Shown here in pieces: positions 628-64,000 of a DNA stretch of 64,000 nucleotides. The translations under genes were made by a program, and so were the position numbers. The DNA is from Somniosus microcephalus (taxonomy: Eukaryota): NCBI GenBank assembly GCA_052327205.1, contig CM126203.1, positions 42,842,001 to 42,906,000 on the forward strand. Reading direction: 5' to 3'. The notes beneath the pieces are model-generated. The model searched no databases and was not told the origin of the DNA. It saw nothing but the letters and a program-made list of their open reading frames with translations. Positions within the stretch are counted from its first letter, which is position 1; each line of letters starts with the position of its first letter.

Positions 628-895
628 TGTTGGAGTCGCTAGAAATCAACAGGCTCTGAGACTTTTGTTGCAGCAAAGGCAAAACGCGTGTTACTTTATT
701 CACTCTCCATGAGGACTGAGGATCTCAGCCTTGTTGCAGGGCTATGATGTCATCACGCTACCGACGCATGACGTCATCACGCTACCGACGCTCTTAAAGG
801 GACCCTGCCCTAATAACCCAACCAAGTACGTACATATAACCACATTGGCTATACATTGTGAATTGTGTTATTGTCCCTATGTGGTCTCCGCCACA
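628..895 (-). repeat. 3' LTR of Gypsy element 628-5012
   Basis: Near-identical to 4702-5012, which carries an extra ~43-bp internal duplication. Confidence 0.95.
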
Positions 896-3800
896 TACGA
901 ACCCCCAGAGTTCACTAGCAATGGCAATGTCAGTCGTTGGGAGGGCCGGATCACACGGTCAGAACGGCTCCTCAATTCCGGGGCAGGGACCGGGGGGTTC
1001 GTTGGAGGGACCTCGGGCGCTCGGTGGTGGACTGAGGGTGCAGAAACCGGAGGTCGGCCCCGCCTCGGTGGCTGTGCCAACTCAACGGGTCGGTCCAGAT
1101 CCAGGTGGGCCGGCTTAAGACGGTCCACGGAAATGCAGTCCGGCTTACCGCCGACATCCACTACAAAGGTCTTGTCCCTGGTTTCCAGGACGCGGAATGG
1201 TCCATCGTAGGATGGCTGAAGAGGTCCCCGGTGGGCATCATGGCGGACGAAAACGTACTCCGCCGCACGAAGGTCGAGTGGAACGTGGGACTGCGGGAGG
1301 CCGTGCTGCGACGTGGGCACCGGCGTGAAAACCTTGGCGTTGTCCAGAAGGTCGGACCGCTGACGGGTTGCGGACCAAGGTTCCGTTGCGTTGGGGACAA
1401 AATCCCCGGGAACCCGCAGCGGCTGTCCGTAGACGAGCTCGGCAGACGAGGACTGGAGGTCCTCCTTGGGGGCGGTCCTGAGTCCCAGCATGACCCACAG
1501 GAGTCTGTCGATCCAACTGTCATCCCGGTGGCTGGCCCGGAGCGCGGCCTTCATGGAGCGATGAAACCGTTCGCACAGTCCGTTAGCCTGAGGGTGGTAT
1601 GCTGTGGTGCGGTGGAGTCTCAACCTGAGGCCTCGGACGACAGCGTTCCAGAGCTCCGACGTGAACTGGGGCCCCTGGTCGGAGGAAATGTCAGATGGGG
1701 CGCCGAACCGGGCGACCCAAATACTGATGAACGCCCAAGCCACATCGGCGGGCGTCATTGAAGACAGCGGGATGGCTTCCGGCCATCGGGTGGTTCTGTC
1801 GACCATTGTGAGGAGGTGGGTGAACCCGCGGGAGGGCGGCAGGGGCCCCACCAGGTCCACGTTAACATGGTCGAACCGCCTCTCGGGCACCGCGAAAGGC
1901 GCCAACGGGGCCTTAGTATGGCGATGCACTTTCGAGCGTTGGCATACCACGCAGGTGCTGGCCCAGTCGCGAACGTGCTTCCTAAGCCCGTGCCAGACGA
2001 ACTTAGCTGCCACCAGCTTCTGTGACAGCTTCCTGCCCGGGTGGGAAAGATTATGGATGGCGTCGAAAACTTGCCATCTCCACCCGTCAGGAGTGTGGTG
2101 CCGGCATTGTCGAACGTGGCGTCGGCTAGTTGAAGGCCCATGACCACCGTCCTGCAGGCCTGGACGTCCGGGTCGGAGGCCTGGTCGGCTGCCATGCGGG
2201 TGTAGTCGATGCCGAGGTGTACGGCACTGGTGACGGCTCGGGAGAGACAGTCGGCGACGGGGTTGTCCTTCCCAGCCACATGCTGGATGTCCGTTGTAAA
2301 CTCTGAGATGAAGGCCAGCTGGCGTTGCTGACGGGCCGACCATGGCTCAGAAGCTTTGGCTATGGCGAAGGTCAATGGTATGTGGTCCACGAACGCTGTG
2401 AACGGGCGAGCCTCCAGTAGGAAACGAAAGTGTCGGACGGCGAGGTAGAGGCTGAGAAGCTCGCGATCGAAGGTGCTGTACTTCCGCTCGTTGGGGCGGA
2501 GCTGCCGGCTGAAGAAGGCGAGTGGCTGCTAGATGCCGTTGACCCACTGTTCATGGACGGCGCCGACCACATAGCCCGAGGCGCCGGTGGTGAGAGCGAT
2601 CGGTGCATCTGGTAACGGATGCGCCAGCATGGTCGCATTAGCCAGGGCCCTTGTCGTGTCCGTGAAAGAATTGGCCATCTCCTCGGACCAGTCGACGGCG
2701 AGCTTGTCGGGCTTGCCTTTGAGGGCCTCGTCAAGGGGCCGCATAAGCTGGGCTGCTCGGGGGACGAAGCGATGGTAAAAGTTCACCATGCCCAAAAACT
2801 CCTGCAGGGCCTTCACGGTGAGGGGTCGCAGGAAGTCCATCATGGCCTCCACTTTCGATGGCAGTGGCACCGCCCCGTCCTTCGTGATGCGGTGCCCGAG
2901 AAAGTTGATCGAGGACAGCCCGAACTGGCACTTGGCCGGGTTGACGATTAGGCCGTGCTGGCTGAGGCGTTGGAAGAGAGTCCGAAGGTGCGACACATGC
3001 TCCGTCTTGGAGGCGCTGGCGATGAGGATGTTGTCCAGGTATATGAACAGGAATGTCAGGTCCCGTAACACGGTGTCCATTAGGCGTTGAAAAGCCTGGG
3101 TGGCGTTTTTGAGGCCGAATGGCATGCAGAGGAATTCGAACAGCCCGAACGGGGTGATCACCGCGGTTTTCGGGACGTCCTGCGGCCGGACAGGGACCTG
3201 GTGGTAACCCCGGATGAGGTCCACTTTCGAGAATACCACTTTCCTGGCCAGGCGGGCGGAAAAGTCCTGGATGTGTGGAATCGGGTAGTGGTCGGGGGTC
3301 GTAGCATCATTGAGGCGCCGGTAATCGTCGCACAGGCGCCACCCGCCACCTGGTTTCGGAGCGATGTGGAGGGGCGAGGCCCACGGACGGTTCGACCGGC
3401 GGATGATGCCGAGGTGCTCCATGGTGTCGAACTCGGCTTTAGCGATGGAGAGTTTCCCCGGGTCGAGGCGCCGAGCACGGGCGTAGACGGGTGGACCGGT
3501 GGTCGAGATGTGGTGTTCTACCCCGTGTTCGGTGGCGGCGGACGAGAACATGGGTTTCGTGAGGTCCGCGAACTTGGCGAGGAGGCGGGAAAACTCGTCT
3601 GAGGCCGAGAGTGCGCTGGACAACTTCGTCGTGCTGGACCCGCTAAGGGAACACGGGAGCGAGCTGAAAGTCTCAGCGTTGATGAGACGTCGGTTCTTGA
3701 CGTCCACCAAAAGGCCATTGTCGCAGAGGAAGTCAGCGCCGAGAAGGTGGGGTGGACACTTTTGCTGTGACAAAGTCCCAGGTGAACCGCTGCCCGCCAA

Positions 3801-4002
3801 AATAAAGCGCCATGCTCCGTTTGGCGAAGGTGCGGATGGAACTGCCGTTGGCAGCTTCGAGGACGGGGCCGTGGTTCCCCCCTTGCATGTCTATGGTTGA
3901 CGCGGGCAGGACGCTCACCTGGGCACCCGTGTCGCAAAGAAAACGACGTCCGGAGTCGGTGTCCGTAATAAATAACAAACTGCCTGAACGGCCGACAGCC
4001 AT
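877..4002 (-). pseudogene. pol: Gypsy pol (protease, RT, RNase H, integrase), frameshifted
   Basis: Protease FLCDTGAQVS (3733-4002). RT DYRRLN, MPFGLKNA, IYLDNIL (2529-3800). RNase H fragments. Integrase HVNVDLVGPLP, SDQGPQF, GLCERFHR and GPF module (877-2343). Domains are split across frames. Confidence 0.92.
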
Positions 4003-4245
4003 AGCAGCCGACGAGTGGTCTTTCGTTTGTTTCGACGCGGGAAAACTGCACGGGGGCCGGCACTTCCTGGCTTTGGGGCCGAACTGCGCGTGGTAGAAGC
4101 AGAGGCTTGGGGGCTGCCGCCGTTGGGCTGTATCGGTGGGGGCAGGGCTCCACGTGGCCGTGCAGTACTGTTGCCCGGCAGAGAAAAATTTGACGGCCTC
4201 CTTGGCCAGGTCACGGAAATCGGTAATGGAAGAGTTGGCTAAAGC

Positions 4246-4653
4246 CTACTGTACCTGACCTGGCAGCTGTTGAAGGAACAGTTCCTTGAAGAGGAAGCAC
4301 AGCCTGTGTGTGCCCAGGAGGGCCAGCATGTGGTCCATCAGCTCCGAGGGCTTGGAGTCGCCAAGCCCGGGTAGAGAGAGAAGCCGGCGTGCGCGCTCGG
4401 CTTCAGTGAGTCCAAAAGTTTCTAAGAGATGCGTTTTCAGCGTTTTGAATTTGTTGAGCTCCGGGGGGGTTCTGAGCAGGCTCATGACTCTGGCCGCGGT
4501 GGAGCTGATGAGAGCAGAGACGACGTAGTAGTACCTCGTGTCATCCGTGGTGATGCCCCGGAGTGCAAATTGAGCCTCGGCCTGGGCGAACCAAGCGACA
4601 GCCTGTCGTTCCCAAAACTCGGGTAATTTGATGGAAACACCGTTCGTCGCCAT
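4246..4653 (-). pseudogene. gag: Gypsy gag N-terminal part with premature stop
   Basis: MATNGVSIKLPEFWERQAVAWFAQAEAQF, starting ~47 nt after the PBS. TAG at 4246; gag-like sequence continues toward the protease. Confidence 0.85.
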
Positions 4654-4701
4654 TTCAGATGCGGTCTTTGGAATCGTCCAAAAGAGCAGCGGGGTCACCA
4701 A

Positions 4702-5012
4702 TGTTGGAGTTGCTAGAAATCAACAGGCTCTGAGACTTTTGTTGCAGCAAAGGCAAAACGCGTGTTACTTTATTCACTCTCCATGAGGACTGAGGTTCTC
4801 AGCCTCGTTGCAGGGCTATGACGTCATCGCGCTACCGACGCATGACGTCATCACGCTACCGACGCTCTTAAAGGGACCCTGCCCCGATAACCCAACCAAG
4901 TACGTACATATAACAACATTGGCTATACATAGTGAATTGTGTTTAGGTACATATAACCACATTGGCTATACATTGTGAATTGTGTTATTGTCCCTATGTG
5001 GTCTCCGCCACA
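4702..5012 (-). repeat. 5' LTR of Gypsy element 628-5012
   Basis: Adjacent to the PBS (4690-4700). Contains two TGACGTCA palindromes. Confidence 0.95.
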
Positions 5013-16210: not shown

Positions 16211-16443
16211 AATGAGCCTGAATGGCTCACAGGAAAGGCTTAACCACTCCCTCCTCTTTTGTTAGATCAGAAGACTGGTAATATTCCAGCCACCATCCTT
16301 TTGGCCGAACTATGCATCCCATCCCTTCTCCAGCTCTGCTTGCAAACTGAATTTTAAAGATTCACTTTAACTTAAATTTAACATTTCAACATAGATCATA
16401 CCCAAATCCTTATATGATAAAATAGTTGAAAATCCAAAAACAT

Positions 16444-18800
16444 GAGACTTCCGCAGTAGTAAAAGCAACGGGAGCGGCTGGAGAGCGCGAGACTTCGGCA
16501 GTAGTAAAAGCAGCGAGAGCGGCTGGAGAGCGCGAGACTTCGGCGATAGTAAAGCAGCGGGAGCGGCTGGAGAGCGCGAGACTTCGGCGATAGTAAAGCA
16601 GCGGGAGCGGCTGGAGAGCGCGAGACTTCGGTGGTAGTAAAGCAGCGGGAGCAGCTGGAGAGCGCGAGACTTCGGCGATAGTAAAGCAGCGGGAGCGGCT
16701 GGAGAGCGCGAGACTTCGGCGGTCGTAACAGCAGCGAGAGCGGCTGGAGAGCGCGAGACTTCGGCGGTAGTAAAGCAGCGGGAACGGCTGGCGAGCACGA
16801 GACTTCGGCGGTAGTAAAACAGCGGGAGCGGCTGGAGAGCGCGAGACTTCAGCGGTAGTAAAAGCAGCGAGAGCAGCTGGAGAGCGCGAGACTTCGGCGG
16901 TAGTAAAACAGCGGGAGCGGCTGGAGAGCGCGAGACTTTGGCGGTAGTAAAAGCAGCGAGAGCGGCTGGAGAGCGCGAGACTTCGGCGGTAATAGAAACA
17001 GCGGGAACGGCTGGAGAGCGTGAGACTTCGGCGGTAGTAGAAACAGCGAGAGTGGCTGGAGAGCGCGAGACTTCGGTGGTAGTAAAAGCAGCGAGAGCGG
17101 CTGGAGAGCACGAGTCTTCGGCGGCAGTAAAAGCAGCGGGAGCGGCTGGAGAGCGCGAGACTTCGGCGGTAATAGAAACAGCGGGAGCGGCTGGATAGCG
17201 CAAGACTTTGGAGGTAATAGAAACAGCGGGAGCAGCTGGAGAGCGCGAGACTTCGGCGGTAGTAAAAGCAGCGAGAGTGGCTGGAGAGCGCGAGACTTCG
17301 GCGGTAATAGAAACAGCGGGAACGGCTGGAGAGCGCGAGACTTCGGCGGTAATAGAAACAGCGGGAACGGCTGGAGAGCGCGAGACTTCGGCGGTAGTAG
17401 AAACAGCGAGAGCGGCTGGAGAGCGCGAGACTTCGGTGGTAGTAAAAGCAGCGAGAGCGGCTGGAGAGCACGAGTCTTCGGCGGCAGTAAAAGCAGCGGG
17501 AGTGGCTGGAGAGCGCGAGACTTCGGCGGTAATAGAAACAGCGGGAGCGGCTGGAGAGTGCGAGACTTCGGCGGTAGTAGAAACAGCGAGAGCGGCTGGA
17601 GAGCACGAGACTTCGGTGGTAGTAAAAGCAGCGAGAGCGGCTGGAGAGCACGAGTCTTCGGCGGCAGTAAAAGCAGCGAGAGCGGCTGGAGAGCACGAGT
17701 CTTCGGCGGCAGTAAAAGCAGCGGGAGTGGCTGGAGAGCGCGAGAGTTCGGCGGTAATAGAAACAGCGGGAACGGCTGGAGAGCGCGAGACTTCGGCGGT
17801 AGTAGAAACAGCGAGAGCGGCTGGAGAGCGCGAGACTTCGGTGGTAGTAAAGCAGCGGAAGCGGCTGGAGAGCGCAAGACTTCGGCGGTAGTAAAGCAGC
17901 GGGAGCGGCTGGAGAGCGCAAGACTTCGGTGGTAGTAAAGCAGTGGGAGCGGCTGGAGAGCGCGAGTCTTTAGCGGCAGTAAAAGCAGCGGGAGCAGCTG
18001 GAGAGCGCGAGACTTCGGCGGTATTAAAGCAGCGGGAGCGGCTGGAGAGCGCGAGTCTTCGGCGGCAGTAAAAGCAGCGGGAGCAGCTGGAGAGCGCGAG
18101 TCTTCGACGGCAGTAAAAGCAGCGGGAGCGGCTGGAGAGCGCGAGACTTCGGCGGTAGTAAAGCAGCGGGAGCGGCTGGAGAGCGCAAGACTTCAGCGGT
18201 AGTAAAGCAGCAGGAGCGGCTGGAGAGCGCAAGACTTCGGTGGTAGTAAAGCAGCGAGAGCGGCTGGAGAGCGCGAGACTTCAGCGGCAGTAAAAGCAGC
18301 AAGAGCTGCTGGAGAGCGCAAGACTTCGGCGGTAGTAAAGCAGCGGGAGCGGCTGGAGAGCGCGAGACTTCAGCGGCAGTAAAAGCAGCAAGAGCTGCTG
18401 GAGAGCGCAAGACTTCGGCGGTAGTAAAGCAGCGGGAGCGGCTGGAGAGCGCGAGACTTCAGCGGTAGTAAAGCGGCGGGAGCGGCTGGAGAGTGCGAGA
18501 CTTCAGCGGTAGTAAAAGCAGCGAGAGCGGCTGGAGAGCGCGAGACTTCGGCGGTAGTAAAGCAGCGGGAGCGGCTGGAGAGCGTGAGTCTTCGGCGGCA
18601 GTAAAAGCAGCGGGAGCGGCTGGAGAGCGCGAGACTTCGGCGGTAGTAAAGCAGCGGGAGCGGCTGGAGAGCGCAAAACTTCGGCGGTAGTAAAAGCAGC
18701 GAGAGCGGCTGGAGAGCGCGAGACTTCGGCGGTAATAGAAACAGCGGGAGCGGCTGGAGAGCGTGAGACCTCGGCGGTAGTAAAGCAACGGGAGCGGCTG
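16444..18800 (+). repeat. GC/CpG-rich minisatellite, 44-45 bp unit, about 52 copies
   Basis: Unit GAGCGGCTGGAGAGCGCGAGACTTCGGCGGTAGTAAA(A)GCAGCGG; runs directly into a CR1 5' UTR. Confidence 0.97.
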
Positions 18801-21480: not shown

Positions 21481-23568
21481 CTTGCAGTCAAGAAGACCAC
21501 ATGTGTGGTAAGTGCCAATGGTTTCGCCAACTTGAGATCCAGTTTTCGGAGCTCGAGCGTCAGCTGGAGGCACTGCGGTGTATCCGCGAGGCTGAGAGCT
21601 ACGTGGATAGCACGTTTTTTAGACGTGGTCACCCCACAGCTTAAGAAAGTGCAGTCAGAGAGGGAATGGGAAACCACCAGTCAGAAGAAGGGGGGGGCAG
21701 GCAGGTAGTTAGGAAAGCCCCAGAGTGCATCTCACTCAACAACCGGTTTTCTGTGTTGGAAAATGGTGACAGTAACGGTTCCTCTGGGGAGTGCAGCCAG
21801 AGCCGTGTTCACGGCACTGTGGGTGGCTCAGCTGCACAAGGGGGGAGGAGTAAGAGTGGAAGGGCAATTGTAGTAGCAGACTCAATAGTGAGGAGTGCAG
21901 ACAGGCGTTTCTGCGGCCGCAGACGTGACTCCAGGATGGTATGTTACCGCCCTTGCCAGGGTCAAGGATGTCACTGAACAGCTACAGGGCATTCTGAAGG
22001 GGGAGGGTGAACAGTCAGAGGTTGTGGTTCACATTGGTACCAACGACATAGGTAGAAAGAGGGATGAGGTCCTGCAACAAGAATTTAGGTAGCAGATTAA
22101 AAAGCAGGACCTCAAAGGTTGTAATCTCTGGATTACTCCCGGTGCCACGTGCTAGTGAGTATAGGAATAGGAGGATAGAGCAGATGAATGCGTGGCTAAA
22201 GAGTTGGTGCAGGAGGGAGGGCTTTAGTTTCCTGGATTGCTGGGTCTGCTTCTGGGGAAGGTGGGACCTGTACAAGTCGGACGGGTTGCACCTGAACCGG
22301 AACGGGACCAACATCCTTGCGGGGAGGTTTGCTAGTGCTGTTGGGGGGGGGTTTAAACTAACTTGGCAGGGGGATGGGATACGGAGTGGAGCTATAGTAG
22401 GGGGTGATGCACAGCCAAATATAGAGGGAAAAAAACAAGTCAGTCTGGAAGGCAGAGCAAATATGTAATAGTACAAGGGAGTATGGCAAGGCTGGATGGC
22501 ATTTATTTTAATGCAAGGAGTCTTGCGAGTAAGGCAGATGAATTGAAGGTGTTAATGAACATATGGGAGTATTATCTTATTGCTATCACAGAGACATGGT
22601 TGAGGGAGGGGCAGGACTGGCAGCTCAATATTCCAGGGTATAGAATCTTCAGGTGAGACAGAGGCGGGTGTAAAAGAGGAGGGGGTGTCGCAATATTAAT
22701 CAAGGAGTCAATTACTGCAGTAAGGAGGGATGATATCTTAGCAGGTTCCTCTAATGAGGCCAGATGGGTAGAACTTAAAAACAAAAAGGGGGCAAGCACT
22801 TTGCTGCAAGTGTACTATAGGCCCTCAAACAGTCAGGGGGAGATAGAGGAACAGATATGTAGACAAATCTCAGAGAAGTGTAGAAATAATAGGGTAATAA
22901 TAGTAGGTGATTTCAACTTCCCCAATATTAACTGGGATAGTCAGAGTGTGAAAGTCTTAGAGGGTGCAGAATTCTTAAAGTGCATCCAGGAGAGCTTTTT
23001 GAGCTAGCATGTAGAAAGTCCTACAAGAGAGGGGGCGATACTGGACCTAATTCTAGGGAATGTAGCCGGGCAAGTGGTAGAAGTGTTAGTAGGAGAGCAT
23101 TTTGGTGACAGTGACCATAATTCGGTGAGATTTAAAGTAGTCGTGGAAAAGGACAAAGATGGACCGGAAATAAAGGTTCTAAATTGGGGGAAGGCCGATT
23201 TTAATATGATAAGGCAGGACCTGGCCAAAGTGGACTGGGATCAGCTACTTGTAGGAAAATCTACATCAGAGCAGTGGGAGTCATTCAGAAAGGAAATATA
23301 GAGAGCACAACGCCAACATGTTCCCGTAAAGGTCAAGGGTGGGACCAACAAGCCCAGGGAACCCTGGATGTCAAGGGATATACAAGAATGGATTAGGAAA
23401 TAAAGGGAGGCTTTTGGCAGATACAAAGGACTAAAAACAGTGGAAGCCCTAGAGGAGTATAGAAAGTGCAGGGGGGTACTTAAAAAAGAAATTAGGAGAG
23501 CGAAGAGGGGGCATGAAAAAACACTGGCGGGCAAAATAAAGGAAAATCCCAAGGTGTTTTATAAGTAT

Positions 23569-26500
23569 TGACATAAGAAAACTACGAAGCACTTGGTTTG
23601 AGTATAAAACAAGGCTTTAATCAACTGTTTCACAACCATGAGCTCTAGTTACATCACTAGTTCCTGGTTACAAAAACGTCCTGAGCAAGCTGGGCCCACG
23701 CCCGAGTATTTATACTTTCCTTGGACGGCGCCACCAGCTGGCCGCCCAGTGTTATCTCATGAGTCATTTCTACATGAATGGTAAGATTAATGACATTCTT
23801 CCCACCTGAAAGATTTGGAAGTCCCGCGACTTCCTTCTAGAGGATATAACGGACCATGAAGAGCCGCAGTCATTTCGATTTCTGTTTGTGGCTGGAAGGC
23901 ACATCTCCTTGGACCGTGTCTTGGTCCCTGGATCGCTTGATTCGTACAGGTAGGTTGACCGGGCCTGTGTCGCCTTGATCGATCTGAGGGGGACTGGGGA
24001 GATCATCACTCTGGGTACGGGTCCCCACAGGCGCAGAGCTGGCTTCATCTTGCTTGGTAGCTGGTGATTGTCCGGCGTCCTGGCTTCGGGTGGCCATCCC
24101 GTGGGGAGCGCTCTGCTCCCCGAGTTGATTCAGTGAAGTAGCCGGCAGATCCCTTGATGTCCCGGGTAGGGTGTCATCCTCAAAGGAGCGCAGAGTGTCA
24201 GCATCATTATTATGGATCCCTCTATCGGTGGGGTCCGTGGGACTGGTTGGACAGGGAGCCAGATCTCGGAGTGAAATGGTGGACTGCCGGCCATCAGGGT
24301 ACCGCACGTGCGCATATGTGGGATTAACGTCTGTTAGTTCCACCACGTCGATGGTATCATTCTTGGAAGAGCGAACGAATCTTCGGAGCAGCACAGGGCC
24401 GGGAGCTGCCAACCATGATGGTAGGGACGTCCCATGAGCGGTGCAACACTGGAACCCGAAGAATCGTTCGTGAGGAGTAACTTTGGTGGACATAGAAAGA
24501 AGAGACCTGATGGAATGCAACATGTCAGGGAGCACAGTTTCCCACTGCTGGTCTGGTAGATTGCGTGACCTCAGTGCAAGACAAACAGCGTTCCAAATGA
24601 TAGCGTTGTATCTCTCAACCTGTCCGTTACCGATGGGATGATACGATGTCATTTTACTTGTGGCGATTCCCCGTTGAGAAAGATAACTTTTGAGTTCGCT
24701 TGACATGAAGGAGGGACCCCGATCAGAGTGGATGAAATTGGCCGTACCGCAAAGGGGAAAGACCTGATCGAGGCATTTGATCACTGTGGAAGTAAGCATA
24801 TTGGTACAGGGGAAAGCAAAGGGAAAGCATGAATATTCGTCCACCATAGTAAGCAAGTAGGTGTTTCGCGTTAAGGAGGGCAATGGCCCTTTAAAGTCAA
24901 TACTGAGTCACTGCATAGCGTGTATGAGCGAGCCATCCGACGGACGGAAGAATTGCGGTTTAAATTCCGCGCAAATTCTACAAGTGGAACATGTTCTTTT
25001 CACGTCTTCCGTAGAAAATAGGAGATTTTTAGATCACACAAAGTGCAACATACGGGTAACGCCAGGATGGCATAAGTCAGTATGAAGATCCGCAAGAGTC
25101 GAAGTTGACATCGAAGAGCAGAATGCATGCGTGAGGGTATCCGGGGCCACATTCTTTTTGCCTGGTCGATAATGTATGGTGTAGCCAAAGGCAGCCAATT
25201 CCATCCTCCAGAGCTGTATTTTGTTATTCTTGATCTTATTGCGTTTCCGGTTATCCAGCATAAAGGCCACGGAGCGCTGATCGATTATAAGCGTGAAATG
25301 GCGACAAGCGAGAAAATGACTCCATTTACGTACTGCTTCGATGATAGCCATAGCCTCCTCGGAGGAGGATAATGGAGCTTGCTACCCTGCAAAGTTCTGG
25401 ACAGAAATGCAACGGGTCAACCACCTTGATTCAAGGTAGCCGAGGTCGCCACCTCCGATGCATCGCACTCGCCCACGAAAGGGAAATTTTCATTGATGGA
25501 ACGAAGCGTGGCCTTTTCCAGTTGTCGCTTGAGGAGGTTAAAAGCTGAAATAACCGTTGCCTCCAACGGAAATGACTTCGCGTGAAGCAGGGGCTGGACC
25601 TTGTCGGAGAAGTGGGGTATCCACTTCGTATAATAGGTGAACATGCCGAGTGCCCGACGAATAGAGCCGAGATTCGTAGGGGGAGCGAGCTCCTGAAGTG
25701 GACGAAGTCGCTCCGGATTCAGTTTGATGACACCATTGCCCACCCAGTAGCCAAGAATGTTGACTGATGGTACTCATTTCACAGATTTGGACTCATTTAA
25801 GGTTAAGTTGCGACGACGGAGAACGTCAAAAAATTTCTGGAGGTTGGCATCATGCTCCTTCTGGTTATGACCAGCAATGGTGATATTATCCAGATATGGA
25901 AAAGTGTCCGTTAAGTTCTCCTGTTTGACTAGGCTATCCATTGCCCATTGAAAGATGGCCACCCCATTGGTGACCCCAACTGGAAGGAGACAAAACTGGT
26001 AAAGCCGATCATTGGCCTCAAAGGCCGTATACTTTTTGTCAGAGTCTTTTAATGGTACTTGATGGTACGTGCTCTTTAAGTCAAAAGTTGAAAATACCTT
26101 GTAGTTGGCAAGGTTATTGACCATGTCATCGATGCGTGGTAGTGGGTAGGCATCCAGGTCGGTATACTGGTTAATAGTTTGTGAGTAATCGATGCAAAGA
26201 TGTTTCATGTGTTGCTTCAGACGATTTTTAACAATGACGACTTGAGCCAGCCAGGGAGATGAACATGGCTCAATGATACCGTCAGCTAGAAGGCGAGAGA
26301 TCTCTGCCTCATTGAAGGATAGATCATCTTGGCTGAAACGTCGTGATTTAGTGACTATGGGCTTACATCGAGGGGAAAGATTGGCAAACAAGGAGGGCTC
26401 GTCGAACGAAGTCGCCGAAAGCGCACAAACCGGTACTTTGGAAACAGTAAGCTCCGGCTTTGACCCTCCAAACTCGAAAGTGAGTCTTTTGTGTTGTTTC

Positions 26501-28341
26501 TGGAAATCCTGTCCCAGGAGCACATCACTGCATAGGTTTTTGAGCACCCCGAGCCGGGTGGAGAAATATGTGTGGCCATTGAGAATAAGGTCAACAAGAC
26601 AAAAGCCGGAAGAGTTGGTGGTCAATGTCGTCAGAGCCATTGCAATTTCCCTGTCCGAGGGGTAAATACGCAGTTTTAACTTACTGACAGCCCACTCACT
26701 AATGAAGCTGTCAGAGCTGCATAGTCGATTAGTGCACTTAAAATGTGTCAATTTACCGAAACCTTCGTGGCTGCATGGGACAGACTTTGGGGAAAAACAG
26801 CTGTGATGGGAGGAGGAGCAGTTTTACCCTTGACAGCTGTAACCTTAGTAGTGGATCTTGGGGGCGGAGCAGTTTTATAGATAGTAGCTGCAAAACTAAC
26901 AGGGGCTTTTGACCGGTATACCTTAGAAAAGTGGCCTTTCTTACTAACAGAGGCTCTTGACTGGCATACTTTAGAAAAGTGACCTTTCTTACTGCAATGA
27001 TTGCAGGTTGCGTTAGGAGCAGGACAAAATTTCCTGTAGTGGAATGTACCTCCATAGAAGAAACACTTCCTTCCAGATTGCCAAGATGCCGCTAGGGCAG
27101 GGTTATCATCAGTGAAGGCTTCTAGGGTAGGGTTGTCATCAGCTAGGTGATGCGCTATCAACAATACCAAAGACTACGAGATGGACTTAAATGAAGTAGG
27201 CTTTTATTGACTAAGAACTAGAGCATGCCTCTGCTAGTGAATCCATCCTAAGAGCTCTCGGGGGAAGGGTGGTGAGTCACCTTTATACCCAGGCTTAGGG
27301 GTGGAGCCAGGGGCTGAGACATGCCTGGACTTGTACAGGGTTAACAGTGGTTTACCACACAGGCATGTACAGGTTAACAGTGGTTTACCACACTAGGTTA
27401 GAGTCATCATCAGTGAGGGCTTCCACCTGATGCCTATCGAAGGAGTCACTAAAAGTGATAGCAGCAGCCCATGCACGTGGTAAAAGATAGGTATCTGCAT
27501 TCCTTTTTGCTAAGTCCAGAGAACATGCCTGGTCATAGGCAGCCTGTAACTCGAGGGTTTTATTCTCCAACAGACGCTGGCGTACGAAGGGAGACGCAAT
27601 CCCATTAATAAAGGAATCACGAATTAACTCCTTCTGGTACTGCTCAGCTGTGACAGCTTTAAGATTACAATCCTTGCTGAGCCTGCGAAACTTTGAAGGA
27701 ATTCGTTAAGTGATTCCCCGGGTTGTTGTCGAGTTGTGGCCAGTAGATGCCGAGCAAAAATTTTGTTTGGAGCCTTAACACATAGTCGCTGTAATATTAG
27801 GATAGTGGAGTCATAGTCTACACAGTCTTTGATATAGTCAAACACATGAGGAGATACATAATTGGCAAGTATCTCTAATTTATCAGGAACATTCTCACCA
27901 CACACCCTGAGGAAGTTGCTGAAGGTGCGATACCAGTGTTTCCATACCTTAGCTGTTGTAGGTGAATTCGGGTCCTGGTCAAGATGGGCAGGTCTGAGTA
28001 GTTTGTCCATGATGGATTGATTACTACGTCGGAGTTCCCTTCTACAGTTGAAGTCGTAGCTGGCTGTTCCCGAAATCACTCAGAGCGTGGAGCCGATACA
28101 CAGTTGATTAAATTGGCGTAAGAAAACTACTGAGCACTTGGTTTGAGTATAAAACAAGGCTTTAATCAACTGTTTCACAACCATGAGTTTCTAGTTACAT
28201 CACTAGTTCCTGGTTACAAAAATGTCCTGAGCAAGCTGGGCCCATGCCCGAGTATTTATACTTTCCTTGGACGGCGCCACTAGCTGGCCGCCCAGTGTTA
28301 TCTCATGAGTCATTTCTACATGAATGGTAAGATTCATGACA
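23569..28341 (-). mobile_element. Full-length Gypsy LTR retrotransposon (second lineage), decayed, inserted in CR1 ORF2
   Basis: LTRs 23569-23795 and 28114-28341 (TG..CA); 5-bp TSD AGTAT; PPT AGGTGGGAAGAA. gag MDKLLRP..WKHW with CNHCSKKGHFSKVC knuckle; RT YPLPRID/YLDNI; RNase H ECDAS; integrase HSDRGPSF/GQVERYN. Confidence 0.95.
27148..27392 (-). mobile_element. Solo LTR of another LTR family inserted in gag
   Basis: TG...CA ends; TSD CTAGG (27143-27147, 27393-27397). Removing it restores gag frame DDDSNLADDNPTL. Short internal duplication near the right end. Confidence 0.88.
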
Positions 28342-44864: not shown

Positions 44865-47443
44865 TGTAGCGGTTCGTGTAGATCGCCACTAAATAAGAGA
44901 GTTTGACTTCGACGAACTATTAACAAGTTGTTTATTTACAGGAACAGACTAATTACATCAGGTAAGATGGCAGGTAAGATGGCTGACTGTAGGAGCACCG
45001 TGGTATAGGTCTTGTCCCATCGGGAACTCCACGAGGACTGAGTTCGCAGTCCTGTGGGGAGCGTGATGACGTCATCGCATTTGTGTTGTGACGTCATCAC
45101 GTTGTTCGCGTTTCCCATGCTTAGGGCGTCACGTGATGCGCGTCATTGCGTCGCTGGCCGTTGAGGCCGAGGTCGCGAGGCCGGGCTGTGCCGGTGCTTG
45201 CTGCAGGAGCGGAAGATCGCGTCGCTCCCGTCGGCTGGCTGTTGAGGCCGAAGACGCTGGGCCGGGCTGTGCCGGCGCATGCACATCACGTCGTATGTGA
45301 CGTGAGGTCAGCGCGCTAGGGCGCGTCTTAAAGGGGCAATGGCCCCAACAGGTAAGTTAAAAGGGCAACGGCCCCAAAAGGTAAGTTAAAGGGAATTATG
45401 TGTCTTTATGTAAGTTACAACCGGTGGTACCGCCACATGGGCCCCCCCAGAATTCGCTTTAACGAAAATCCAAGGATGAGATGGTCTGACGAGCTGGTGG
45501 TCACGGCAGTCGTGCTGTCTCGACTTGGTAGGCGAGGTATGAAGATGCTGCTCGTGAGCGGATCCTTACGCGCGTCGTGGCGAATAAAACGTATCCATCA
45601 GGCAAAGGACCGTGGAGACGTGCGAAACAGCAGGCCTTGTCAGAGTGACGGGCAGGTTGGGCGGACGCGGGCAATGTCTCCGTTGATGTTGAAACAAGTC
45701 CTTGTTCCGACGAACTCTGTAGGAACGCCAAACGAGCGATCCAGAAGGACTTGACAGGCGAGGTCGGTGAACTCGCCGACAGGTGAGCAAAACCTTCGGG
45801 AGGCTGGAACGCACGGAACGGTGCGTGCCATAGTGCTACGATGATAACACAACGGAGGGTGAAGAGTTGCTGCGTTGATCAGTGATCGGTGAGGCCAGCA
45901 ACTTTCACGTGGCTGATCGCGGCCGCAGGATGCCCGTTGGACCCGTCCTCGATGTGTGCAGCTTCAGTAGACGTTTGCGTTTGCTAAAGGGAAAACTGGA
46001 TAAAGGGCAGCAACGGTCCAGGTTGTTGTTGCTTTCGGGCAGGGTAAACTCTGCCTGGAGGGTGGCAACACTTGAAACTGTTGTAGATTTAGGAGAAAAT
46101 AGCCGGGAGGGCGGTACGCTTTTGTTCACGCCGAATTGTGTAGTAGGTAACACAACCAGCAGGCTGAAGGGCTGGTGCGTCGGCGGCGGAGAAGGGGTCG
46201 TCGTTTCGCATGAGGGATGGGTCGTCGTGGTTCGCGAGGGATGGGTCCTCGTGCGCGAGGAGTGCGTCCTCGTGTTTCGCGGGGGTGAGTCCTTGTGGTA
46301 TCCCTGCGGGGCGCGCTCCAATCTTGTGGGCCCGAACATGCTGTACCCCGCGCTTGGAGAGATGTATACTTGCTGTTGCTTTGGACGTAGAGGCGGACGA
46401 TCCATGTGGCGGTAGAAGAGTCGAATACGGAGACCATGAGCAAGTGCGTGGTCTGTGCCGCATCGATGTTCTCGGCGAACAGGGCTTCTACCTTCATAAA
46501 GCACGAGGGAGACCGTGGCTCCCTGGATTGCGGTAGCGACAACGGAACGGCTGATGCTTCCATAGCGTGCTTCGTTTGTGAAAGACGTTCACAAACCCAC
46601 CAATTGTAGCACTGGTGGACGACGGTTGCCGTTGGTCGTGCTCTACCTCTGTGAGATCGTTTGTGAAAAACGGGCTCACCTCCAAGCTGCGCTTCCGTTG
46701 CGAATACGTACGCAAAGACGGGGTCGCTTTTGGTGGAATCGATGTTAGGCGGTTGCTGTTCCGTGGTTGTTCGTCAGTTGTGTGTTGGTCATCTTGAGGG
46801 AAGACGAGGTTCAGGCGAAGGACCATGGAAATCGTTCACGGATATGGGGTCACCAATTGTAGTGTAGGAATTGATGAACTCCCGTACTCACGTTGTTGGG
46901 TCACCAATGTAGCGGTTCGTGTAGATCGCCACTAAATAAGAGAGTTTGATTTCGACGAACTATTAACAAGTTGTTTATTTACAGGAACAGACTAATTACA
47001 TCAGGTAAGATGGCTGACTGTAGGAGCACCATGGTATAGGTCTTGTCCCAGCGGGGACTCCACGAGGACTGAGTTCGCAGTCCTGTGGGGAGCGTGATGA
47101 CGTCATCGCATTTGTGTTGTGACGTCATCACGTTGTTCGCGTTTCCCGCACTTAGGGCGTCACGTGATGCGCGTCGTTGCGTCGCTGGCTGTTGAGGCCG
47201 AGGTCGCGAGGCCGGGCTGTGCTCGCGTCGCTCCCATCAGCTGGCCGTTGAGGCCGAAGACACTGGGCCAGGCTGTGCCGGCGCACGCACATCACGTCGT
47301 ACGTGACGTGACGTCAGCGCGCTAGGGCGCGTCTTAAAGGGGCAATGGCCCCAACAGGTAAGTTAAAAGGGCAACGGCCCCAACAGGTAAGTTAAAGGGA
47401 ATTATGTGTCTTTATGTAAGGTACAACCGGTGGTACCGCCACA
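44865..47443 (-). mobile_element. Non-autonomous Gypsy-derived LTR element (no pol)
   Basis: LTRs 44865-45437 and 46908-47443; flanks TCGT/ACGT; PBS TGGTGACCC; PPT GAATTCTGGGGGGG. Internal 1.47 kb has a decayed gag (MEASAVPLSLP..F.KVEALF, 46563) aligning with gag at 4653, and an integrase-tail remnant. Confidence 0.9.
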
Positions 47444-48994
47444 ACGTATTGTATTAAATTTATAGCTTAATTAGTTAAACTATTTAATATAACTATAAAT
47501 AATCATTGAATAAAGACTTTAATTAAATAAATAAAATAAGGCTAGTCTAAGATGTGGCAGGGCAGATTGTGTGTCTGGACTGCAGTATGTGGGAGTTTGT
47601 GGACGGTGAGACTGTCCCAAGCAAATACGTCTGCAGGAGATGTCTCTGTCTCGAATCTCTCCGGCTCAGAGTCATTAAGCTGGAGTGCGAGTTGGAGACA
47701 CTCTGACACATCAGGGAGGGGTAGGAATTTCTGGACAGTTTTATCCAGAATACAGTCACAATCCCAGAGGAAAGCACGGGTTCAGGAAGGGGAGGGTGTG
47801 ACTGCTAGGGAGATGGATAGCGGGGATTTAGGAGAGGTTGAGAAGGAGGTCTCACAGACACTGGTCCTGTCCAACAGGTGCGATGTACTTGCTACCTGTG
47901 AGGACAAAGAGAAAGACTGTGGGGAGGACAGCCACAATGCAGACCAAGGCACCGTCGCTCAGAAGGCTGTCCAAGGGGGGGAAGAGCAGAATAGAAATGT
48001 GATAGTAATAGGGGACTCTATAATTAGGGGGGATAGATAGTGTCCTCTGCAGTCATGAACGAGAATCCCGGTGCCAGGGTAAGGGATATCTCACGGCGGC
48101 TGGAGAGGAACTTGGAAAGGGAGGGGTAAATCCAGTTGTTGTGGGCCATGTTGGAACAAACGACATAGGTAGGAACAGGGAGGAGGTCCTGCTGAAAGAG
48201 TTTCAGGAGTTAGGCTCTAAATTAAAATGTAGGACCTCGAGGGTAATAATCTCTGGATTATTGCCCAAGCCACGTGCAAACTGGCATAGAAGCAGACAGA
48301 CCAGGACAATTAACACATGGCTAAAGGGCTGGTGCGGGAAAGAGGGGTTCCTTTTCATGGGACACTGTCCCAGTTCTGGGACAGGAAGGAACTGTACCGA
48401 TGGGCTCACGCTGAATTGGGATGGGACCCATGTCCTAGCGGAGAGGGTAATTAGGGAGGTGGCAAAGGCTTTAAACTAGTAAGAAGGGGGGAGGGATCTA
48501 CAAGAAATGTAACCAGCCTAAATATAAACAAAACATGAAAAGTGAGCATGGGAAAGAATAAAGTAAGGGAGGACATTGACGGCAAAGGAGCAAATAGAGT
48601 TATAGAATAGGCATCTAAAAAGATGGTTAAACATAAAGGCCTAGAAATTCAGTCTGGACACTTTTTGGGCGCTAAAGTCGGGCGTTCGCTAAAGTTAGCG
48701 CCCGCCGGAAAGTGTAGGCCACAACGCCGAAATTCAGTAGAGTTGGCCAAGAGTTTGGCCGAGCGCTGAAACTGGCGTTGCAATGCTCTCTTCATGCGCT
48801 AAGCCGGCGATGCGGCCTGATAACGCCGAGGCCGGGCGCAGCGCAGGTGCGGTCATGTTTTGATTGACAGCAGACACCCTGACGCCGGCCAGCTCTTAAA
48901 GGGGGAAGGGTCGACTTTGCTGCCACGCCCTGCATACTGGAGCCCTGCAGCTAGGCCTCAACACTGCTGGTGGGCCAAAATAGCGCCTGGAGCC

Positions 48995-63712: not shown

Positions 63713-64000
63713 TGTGGCGGAGCCACTAAGGGACTCCGATCAAATGTATATAATTCCCTTTAACAATATGTTAACTACAGCCTGAGTCTGTATCTTTGTA
63801 TATACTGTTTGCATGTACAGAGCGCGGTCCCTTTAAGAGTGCGGGCAAACGCGATGATGTCACGCCGTTCATCACGTGATCCCCCATCGGCGGGAAAAAC
63901 GTGATGACGTCATGACGCCAGCCACGGGACCGTCCAAGCAGTCCTCATGGAGCTTCCGAACTGACTAGACCTGTATTCGTAGCTTTCTTGCATCTGTTTG
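63713..64000 (+). mobile_element. LTR of a related Gypsy element running off the window
   Basis: Starts TGTGGCGG like the other two Trp-primed LTRs. Shares TAATTCCCTTTAAC, TTTAAGAG, TGACGTCA and CAGTCCTCATGGAG blocks. Confidence 0.8.

Follow-up and report, generated by a model that had tools for sequence, protein, structure and literature searches.

Stacked LTR-end/PBS modules in the leader of a pol-less LTR retrotransposon

LTR retrotransposons are already known to exchange LTRs, to reshuffle their modules, to form multi-LTR arrays and to have second tRNA sites. CsRn1, PwRn1 and AgCR of the CsRn1 clade are described as having a tRNA-Trp PBS, a 4-bp target duplication and a CHCC gag (PMC2582038). 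The element analyzed here, located on the minus strand at 47443-44865 of a 64-kb window (the whole stretch of DNA that was analyzed), likewise has a tRNA-Trp PBS and keeps the CHCC spacing, but it differs in that pol is missing, the gag is decayed with one knuckle ligand lost, and the 343-nt leader carries stacked junctions. Since a CHCC ligand is lost, the element is filed as a decayed CsRn1 derivative and not as a full member of the clade.

LTR exchange between dependent and autonomous elements was reportedly described by Du et al. in 2010. Host switches by LTR transfer have been proposed for wheat Angela (PMC9744471), and modular reshuffling has been described for the modular families of sugar beet (PMC13570524). 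The likeness that we propose is that a dependent element takes terminal cis signals from its relatives via recombination during reverse transcription. In the LTR-exchange cases, the swap was read from trees or chimeras, and retained old junctions go unmentioned in the available parts of the accounts, whereas here old U5 end-PBS-hairpin modules persist in the leader.

The multi-LTR arrays of Cassandra/TRIM elements (PMC4079214) also have internal LTR-end/PBS junctions in one mobile unit with one target duplication. However, these arrays contain whole internal LTRs flanked by a PPT and a PBS, compared to ~15-20 nt of U5-like sequence and no inner PPT in the present element. TRIMs are defined as non-coding and under 1 kb, and the maintenance of their dependence is stated to be not known (PMC10886601); at 2579 nt and with a gag remnant, the present element is not a TRIM. 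Drosophila Gypsy and Ty3, with their two-site primer binding (PMC1635307), resemble it in having more than one tRNA-binding site per RNA, but their second site is reported to lie close to the 3' end and to pair with a different part of the tRNA, whereas the sites described here are in tandem, match the same tRNA 3' end and come with LTR ends. A Copia cluster with two PBS types has been mentioned in a text that, in its available part, gives no structure (PMC3212995). Retained, stacked U5-end/PBS modules found no description in the literature searched, with subscription journals and repeat databases outside the search. In laboratory systems, Mikkelsen (1998) reportedly obtained rescue of MLV through extended minus strands, and Li (1997) is said to have studied a dual-PBS HIV-1, from which minus strands running past an unprimed PBS and stable two-PBS genomes would both seem possible. 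Those cases are engineered mutants, whereas the present stack is natural and multi-step.

The element and the two related sequences in the window comprise the following features.

47443-44865, minus strand: whole element, 2579 nt, with an LTR pair and a gag remnant
46908-47443, minus strand: 5' LTR, 536 nt, TG...CA, differing from the 3' LTR in 19 of the 536 ungapped columns
44865-45437, minus strand: 3' LTR, 573 nt, distinguished from the 5' LTR by indels of 25 nt and 12 nt, with an end of the J1 type (see below)
47444-47447, minus strand: left target-site copy ACGT; the right copy, ACGA, is at 44864-44861
46126-46563, minus strand: gag remnant, frame open for 145 codons
45847-45900, minus strand: decayed gag CHCC knuckle, spacing kept and one ligand lost
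45547-45588, minus strand: decayed integrase C-terminal remnant, beside the PPT
45438-45450, minus strand: single polypurine tract (PPT)
628-5012, minus strand: sister full-length element with a DUF7041 gag with CHCC, a pol with stops and one junction, used as an independent comparator
63713-64000, plus strand: third LTR, of the same TGTGGCGG group, ending at the window edge before its U5

The two LTRs are 96.5% identical over the 536 ungapped columns, and by this divergence of 3.5% the insertion is young. The target duplication matches at three of its 4 bp, compared to 4/4 in 628-5012. Of coding sequence, the internal region of 1470 nt retains no more than remnants of gag and of the integrase tail, and no protease, RT, RNase H or integrase core was detected in it. 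With the LTR pair, PBS and PPT all retained and the enzymes for movement absent, the evidence supports a pol-less, dependent (non-autonomous) LTR retrotransposon. The LTRs contain 29-nt and 12-nt tandem units, in addition to a 9-nt word complementary to the T arm of tRNA-Trp as printed in 10.1101/400127, spotted by eye at ~47300-47290 and 45294 on the minus strand, which could be a Ty3-like 3' tRNA site or merely a transcription-factor motif. The surrounding 64 kb of eukaryotic DNA is rich in repeats and contains remains of LINEs, transposases and Gypsy elements, including a Gypsy element of a different type at 23567-28341 (minus strand), which has a non-Trp PBS region and, by eye, an apparent inserted stretch at ~27400-27150, and a long array of 44-45-nt repeats at 16400-18800. 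No tRNA genes were found in the 64-kb window; Rfam gave three matches, all far under gathering scores, and the plasmid collection gave none.

A search of the six frames of the window with the gag family profile matched 46563-46351 (i-E 1.3e-4), the remnant starting at an ATG at 46563; the ORF at 45905-46588, also considered, is not the gag frame. The remnant retains 14 of the first 30 near-invariant residues, compared to 97% in family members. This hand count over the first 30 near-invariant columns, a rough clock, gives an estimated decay of ~0.3 substitutions per site, which is far above the LTR divergence of 3.5%, and the element may well have kept moving long after losing its genes. The matched part has only in-frame gaps with about half of the conserved residues gone, and the 145-codon frame that stays open despite this decay may hint at selection for translation. 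A 24-nt tandem repeat of 3.9 copies lies within the remnant at 46285-46195; together with the 29-nt and 12-nt units, it indicates that the element duplicates short stretches readily. Searched with the gag frame, the clustered protein set gave no relative, Pfam no family at E<=0.1 and the Atlas no match, whereas two matches among representative proteins were dismissed as repeat proteins; a second family copy was absent from all three protein searches.

Across the 64-kb window, with both strands searched, there are exactly three occurrences of the junction motif CTACA(A)TTGGTG, each on the minus strand within the leader of the element, at 46912-46902 (J1), 46862-46851 (J2) and 46609-46598 (J3), with PBS starts at 46906, 46855 and 46602, respectively. 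Among 20,000 dinucleotide-shuffled leaders, the motif appeared once in a single shuffle and never twice. Together with a fourth and a partial fifth copy, the leader contains the following modules.

46872-46912, minus strand: J1, live module; LTR end, 1-nt gap, 9-nt tRNA-Trp PBS (46906-46898), weak ACG-loop hairpin
46823-46877, minus strand: J2, intact spare module; ~15-20 nt of U5-like end, CTACA, 2-nt gap, 10-nt PBS (46855-46846), hairpin (46841-46823)
46682-46765, minus strand: Jb, fourth module; PBS 3' half (46727-46719), ACG-loop hairpin (46715-46698)
46657-46680, minus strand: Jc, partial fifth piece; J3 hairpin 3' arm plus downstream bases, 15/16 match
46574-46620, minus strand: J3, innermost module; CTACA, 2-nt gap, first 5 PBS bases only, then a 9-bp ACG-loop hairpin

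The leader holds at least three spare or broken start-site modules behind the live J1, each unit of the stack being U5 end-PBS-hairpin. The 12 bases with which the 5' LTR terminates at 46908 also form the end of the 3' LTR at 44865, where the target-site copy follows; since the 3' LTR ends like J1, J1 primed this copy. The PBS matches the tRNA-Trp 3' complement, as printed in 10.1101/400127, over 9 nt in J1 and 10 nt in J2. Preservation of the internal modules improves towards the LTR. Jb keeps the 3' half of its PBS and J3 the 5' half. In Jc, the 16-nt stretch 46672-46657 repeats the J3 hairpin arm; a PBS reading of this site at ~46686-46671 was weakened, in that the bases at its beginning correspond in the alignment to the start of gag behind J3, and no ACG hairpin follows. 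J3 lies 39 nt before the gag ATG, a distance that is 47 nt in 628-5012 and 24-68 nt in 8/10 relatives (the measurable ones). The preliminary description of this DNA had reported the three motifs, the first of them as the live junction, the similar spacing to the gag ATG in 628-5012, and a pol-less parasite with a gag remnant downstream of J3, all of which held. Its count of three, in contrast, is right for the motifs but not for the modules, as it lacked Jb (core at 46737-46698) and the partial Jc.

The comparator 628-5012 has a CX2HX9CX3C gag, a tRNA-Trp PBS and a 4-bp duplication; this gag motif is found in 45/50 aligned gag matches and is not intact in the 47443-44865 element. The LTRs of the two elements have no more in common than their first 8 nt and a core block. 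With 63713-64000, three related LTR families lie in the same 64-kb window. The LTR at 63713-64000 (plus strand) is nearer to that of the element than the 628-5012 LTR is, and it is the first candidate donor. In addition, a 51-sequence gag alignment and one scan of genome contigs yielded 12 loci (L001-L012) in prokaryotic species-representative assemblies, all with a CsRn1-like gag and several with LTR pairs, which are likely eukaryotic contigs within prokaryotic assemblies, that is, host contamination. A PBS upstream of gag was found in 11 of the 12. A second PBS word (at most one mismatch, within 400 nt behind the PBS) is present in one of these 11 (L011, at +57, without an LTR end) and absent from 628-5012, compared to an exact copy in the 47443-44865 element; the 11 relatives and 628-5012 have one junction each. 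Two of the loci, L006 (1.9 kb) and L009 (2.6 kb), hold elements shortened by deletion, each with one junction, and the proteins P0052 and P0113 have N-terminal extensions that appear to be read from an LTR end and a PBS onward into gag, here too with a single junction.

A junction profile was built from 10 of the loci and 628-5012 (11 live junctions), leaving out the 47443-44865 element itself, L003 (near-identical to L002) and L012 (PBS not found). Among 127,920 sites, this profile ranked J2 second, J1 third, Jb (46729) 22nd and J3 105th. The model search with the same junctions reported J2 (E 0.0036), J1 (E 0.0063) and an unrelated site at 25961-25980 (E 0.013), and missed both Jb and J3, the latter being absent at E<=10. 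With the 628-5012 junction as the query, J2 and Jb both scored 35 (p 0.0012 against random windows), J1 had p 0.004 and J3 p 0.10, whereas the post-PBS segment of 628-5012 alone gave p 0.69 (J1), 0.075 (J2) and 0.099 (J3). The alignment of Jb with the 628-5012 junction continues through the start of gag and has 47 identities and 12 mismatches (p 0.003-0.13, depending on the scheme). The gap of the live junctions is 1 nt in 8/11 and a 2-nt AT in 3/11, and the live junction of L001 has the same 12-mer as J2 and J3; this 12-mer is a natural junction form and therefore not by itself proof of duplication.

In 628-5012, the PBS is followed by a hairpin with ACG in its loop. Three of the 13 ACG words in the leader lie in hairpins of this type, at a distance behind the junction of 20 nt for both J2 and Jb and of 14 nt for J3, and the five-pair stems of J2, Jb, J3 and 628-5012 differ in sequence, yet all pair. 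Three such hairpins arose in 1/2000 shuffles, and 0.3-0.5% of window positions have one so placed. The J1 hairpin, 21 nt behind, is weak and needs two G-U pairs. As the hairpin rule was fixed after the units had been seen, this evidence is supporting rather than decisive; over the whole element, whose own LTRs are ACG-rich, 8 of 75 ACG words lie in such hairpins. A post-PBS hairpin common to the clade was unsupported, being clear in one of the nine distant relatives folded (L001) and weak in L002 and L006. Altogether, the profile ranks, the hairpins and the likeness to 628-5012 support the earlier claim that the internal motifs are old LTR-end/PBS ends; they are former junction modules and not chance occurrences. 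J3 is weak by its sequence alone, and it counts as a module because of where it lies, the hairpin that follows it and the paralogy to Jb.

Predicted pairing with a 16-nt tRNA proxy amounts to -23.7 kcal/mol for J2, -23.4 for J1, -17.2 for Jb and -13.1 for J3. In the predicted folds, J2 forms a 9-bp stem (46877-46869 paired with 46858-46850), and the PBS bases of J3 sit in a 10-bp stem (46620-46611 with 46604-46595). The predicted cost of opening is 5.8-6.3 kcal/mol for J2 and 6.4-12.7 kcal/mol for J3, compared to maxima of 3.8-5.8 kcal/mol for 12 live junctions, none of which is predicted to be as hard to open; against shuffles of the upstream sequence, the excess is significant for J3 (p 0.003) but not for J2 (p 0.087). 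The inner sites are decayed or are predicted to fold shut. J2 pairs with the tRNA proxy as well as J1 does in this model and may occasionally be used.

The nature of the spacers bears on what was stacked. Spacer 1 (35 nt) consists mostly of the J1 PBS tail and hairpin, which leaves ~15-20 nt of U5-like sequence before J2. Two measured parts of spacer 2 have 16% and 10% T, compared to 30-48% in 12/12 U5 regions and 10-28% behind the PBS of 10 relatives; by this composition, most of the long spacer is leader-like and T-poor, not U5-like. Comparison of the spacers against the element's own LTR, the LTR and U5 of 628-5012, the LTR at 63713 and the 11 distant loci gave no match bar one, in which 46897-46883 of spacer 1 agrees with the own LTR at ~47137-47123 (minus strand) in 13/15 bases (p 0.007-0.047); as one of 13 comparisons under three schemes, it is marginal after multiple tests. 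No stacked PPTs or LTR starts were found at the 3' end or internally in the element, and the single PPT, with its decayed integrase neighbor, gives no indication that the U3 was replaced. The preliminary description had proposed serial LTR replacement through repeated capture of new LTR+PBS modules, with old U5/PBS ends left behind. Given the leader-like long spacer, serial replacement of whole LTRs is overstated, and neither the lone PPT nor the absence of LTR starts inside the element gives any sign of it. The spacers matched no U5 sequence in the LTRs compared and no LTR except for that marginal 15 nt.

The modules differ in their likeness to each other. The alignment of Jb with J3 begins ~40 nt upstream and reaches the start of gag, with 56 identities, 17 mismatches and 19 gaps (p 0.0003 with the motif masked, p 0.002 anchored), so that at least one stacking event was a local duplication. 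As they differ at 17/73 aligned bases in addition to the gaps, compared to 3.5% between the LTRs, this duplication is older than the insertion. Outside the motif, J1-J2, J2-J3 and J1-J3 gave p 0.18, 0.065 and 0.85, respectively, with the motif masked, and 0.16, 0.28 and 0.93 when anchored. By contrast, a gapped alignment of J1 and J2 that includes the motif has 34 identities, 4 mismatches and 13 gaps (p 0.0007; the windows overlap by 11 nt), and therefore J1 may have arisen as a copy of J2 that has since diverged. No base is lost over 17 nt of J2, and an unselected 17-mer at 0.3 per site would stay intact with a probability of <0.01; being intact despite the gag decay, J2 was therefore live until late or under selection. 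A late self-duplicate should closely resemble J2, which J1 does not, and for this reason J1 is likely, though unproven, to be a recent graft from a sister family; J2 over Jb is perhaps another such swap. Simple local duplication, which the preliminary description had named as a refutation of its view, applies in part: J3 was duplicated as Jb, whereas J1, J2 and J3 are not simple recent copies. Its idea of serial capture was also half sustained, by the sister families in the window and the unlikeness of J1, J2 and J3 outside the motif, with no donor LTR found among the own LTR, 628-5012, the truncated LTR at 63713 and the 11 distant loci.

We propose, with a rough probability of 0.55 for the whole explanation, that the element derives from a CsRn1-like Ty3/Gypsy retrotransposon, lacks pol and carries in its leader four or more module copies, stacked by out-of-register template switches during minus-strand synthesis, with one pair self-duplicated and the outermost grafted from a sister family. 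Template-switch recombination between co-packaged RNAs, also across families, is reported as established (PMC6894440). In the proposed course of events, two RNAs would be packaged by a helper and priming would occur on RNA 1, whereas the minus strand would be completed on RNA 2, whose 5' end would have escaped degradation. The strand would cross the PBS of RNA 2, enter a short way into its U5 and then jump to RNA 1, landing at least ~30 nt downstream of the PBS on that RNA and giving a product of the order U5(1)-PBS(1)-hairpin(1)-short U5 end(2)-PBS(2)-leader(2). If both RNAs were the element's own copies, a tandem duplication would result (Jb/J3, with the Jc piece); if the partner came from a sister family, the R-U5-PBS-hairpin would be swapped (J1 over J2, perhaps J2 over Jb). 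In this copy, priming took place at the outermost site alone, as the 3' LTR end shows. The anatomy, the likeness of the modules and the paralogy of Jb and J3 are observed; the switch itself, the order of events and the foreign origin of J1 are what we infer.

A different account, unlikely but to be taken seriously, traces every module to ancient duplication of the junction that the element itself had; the copies would have diverged beyond recognition while selection kept the PBS and/or the hairpins, for example if extra tRNA-binding or packaging signals help the parasite to compete for helper Gag. Jb/J3 and Jc are indeed duplicates, J1 and J2 align when the motif is counted, the stems pair though their sequences differ, and J2 is predicted to bind the tRNA proxy as well as J1; moreover, a natural 23-nt insertion beside the HIV-1 PBS has been reported (PMC11181671). 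Yet self-duplication leaves unexplained the integrase-type CTACA end of J2 with its natural 2-nt gap, which is unlike that of J1, and the modules J1, J2 and J3 show no likeness outside the motif in the masked or anchored tests. In addition, J3 and Jb each lost half of the PBS, so tRNA binding was not what was kept there.

Modules of unlike sequence would also arise by a genomic route, in which tandem or nested elements (LTR-internal-LTR-internal-LTR) were co-transcribed and deletions spared only the inner U5 ends and PBSs. Multi-LTR elements that still transpose are known from pear Cassandra (PMC4079214). However, no internal PPT or LTR start remains, and repeated deletions would be required, each with one breakpoint ~30 nt past a PBS and the other 15-20 nt ahead of the following PBS, which makes this route improbable. 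Somewhat more doubtful again is the idea that the stack could be a working adaptor, in which J1 (1-nt gap) and J2 (2-nt gap) would serve as alternative priming/integrase junctions for two helper families. Priming at either would then regenerate the same RNA, J2 would be kept intact by use, and family copies would occur with LTRs 50 nt longer, ending at the CTACA of J2. The predicted primer binding of J2, equal to that of J1, speaks for this idea, and its high predicted opening cost speaks against it, although that cost is by itself not significant.

That the stack is private to this insertion and formed after integration is consistent with the single copy examined but very improbable, given LTRs 3.5% apart and Jb and J3 differing at far more of their aligned bases. 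Finally, the notion that J3 and Jb are chance or leader-structure look-alikes, with J2 the only true second junction, has their weakness on the junction profiles in its favor, but is hardly credible when J3 sits at the PBS-to-ATG distance of the clade, Jb aligns with the 628-5012 junction through the gag start and both come with the hairpin.

The short post-PBS hairpin is a candidate cis signal in CsRn1-like elements. If duplication alone was at work, the stack is a modest structural curiosity. If it was partly borrowed, the refitting of such parasites could be read from the front end of the element, and a leader that keeps earlier junctions in order would allow helper switches to be read from one sequence.
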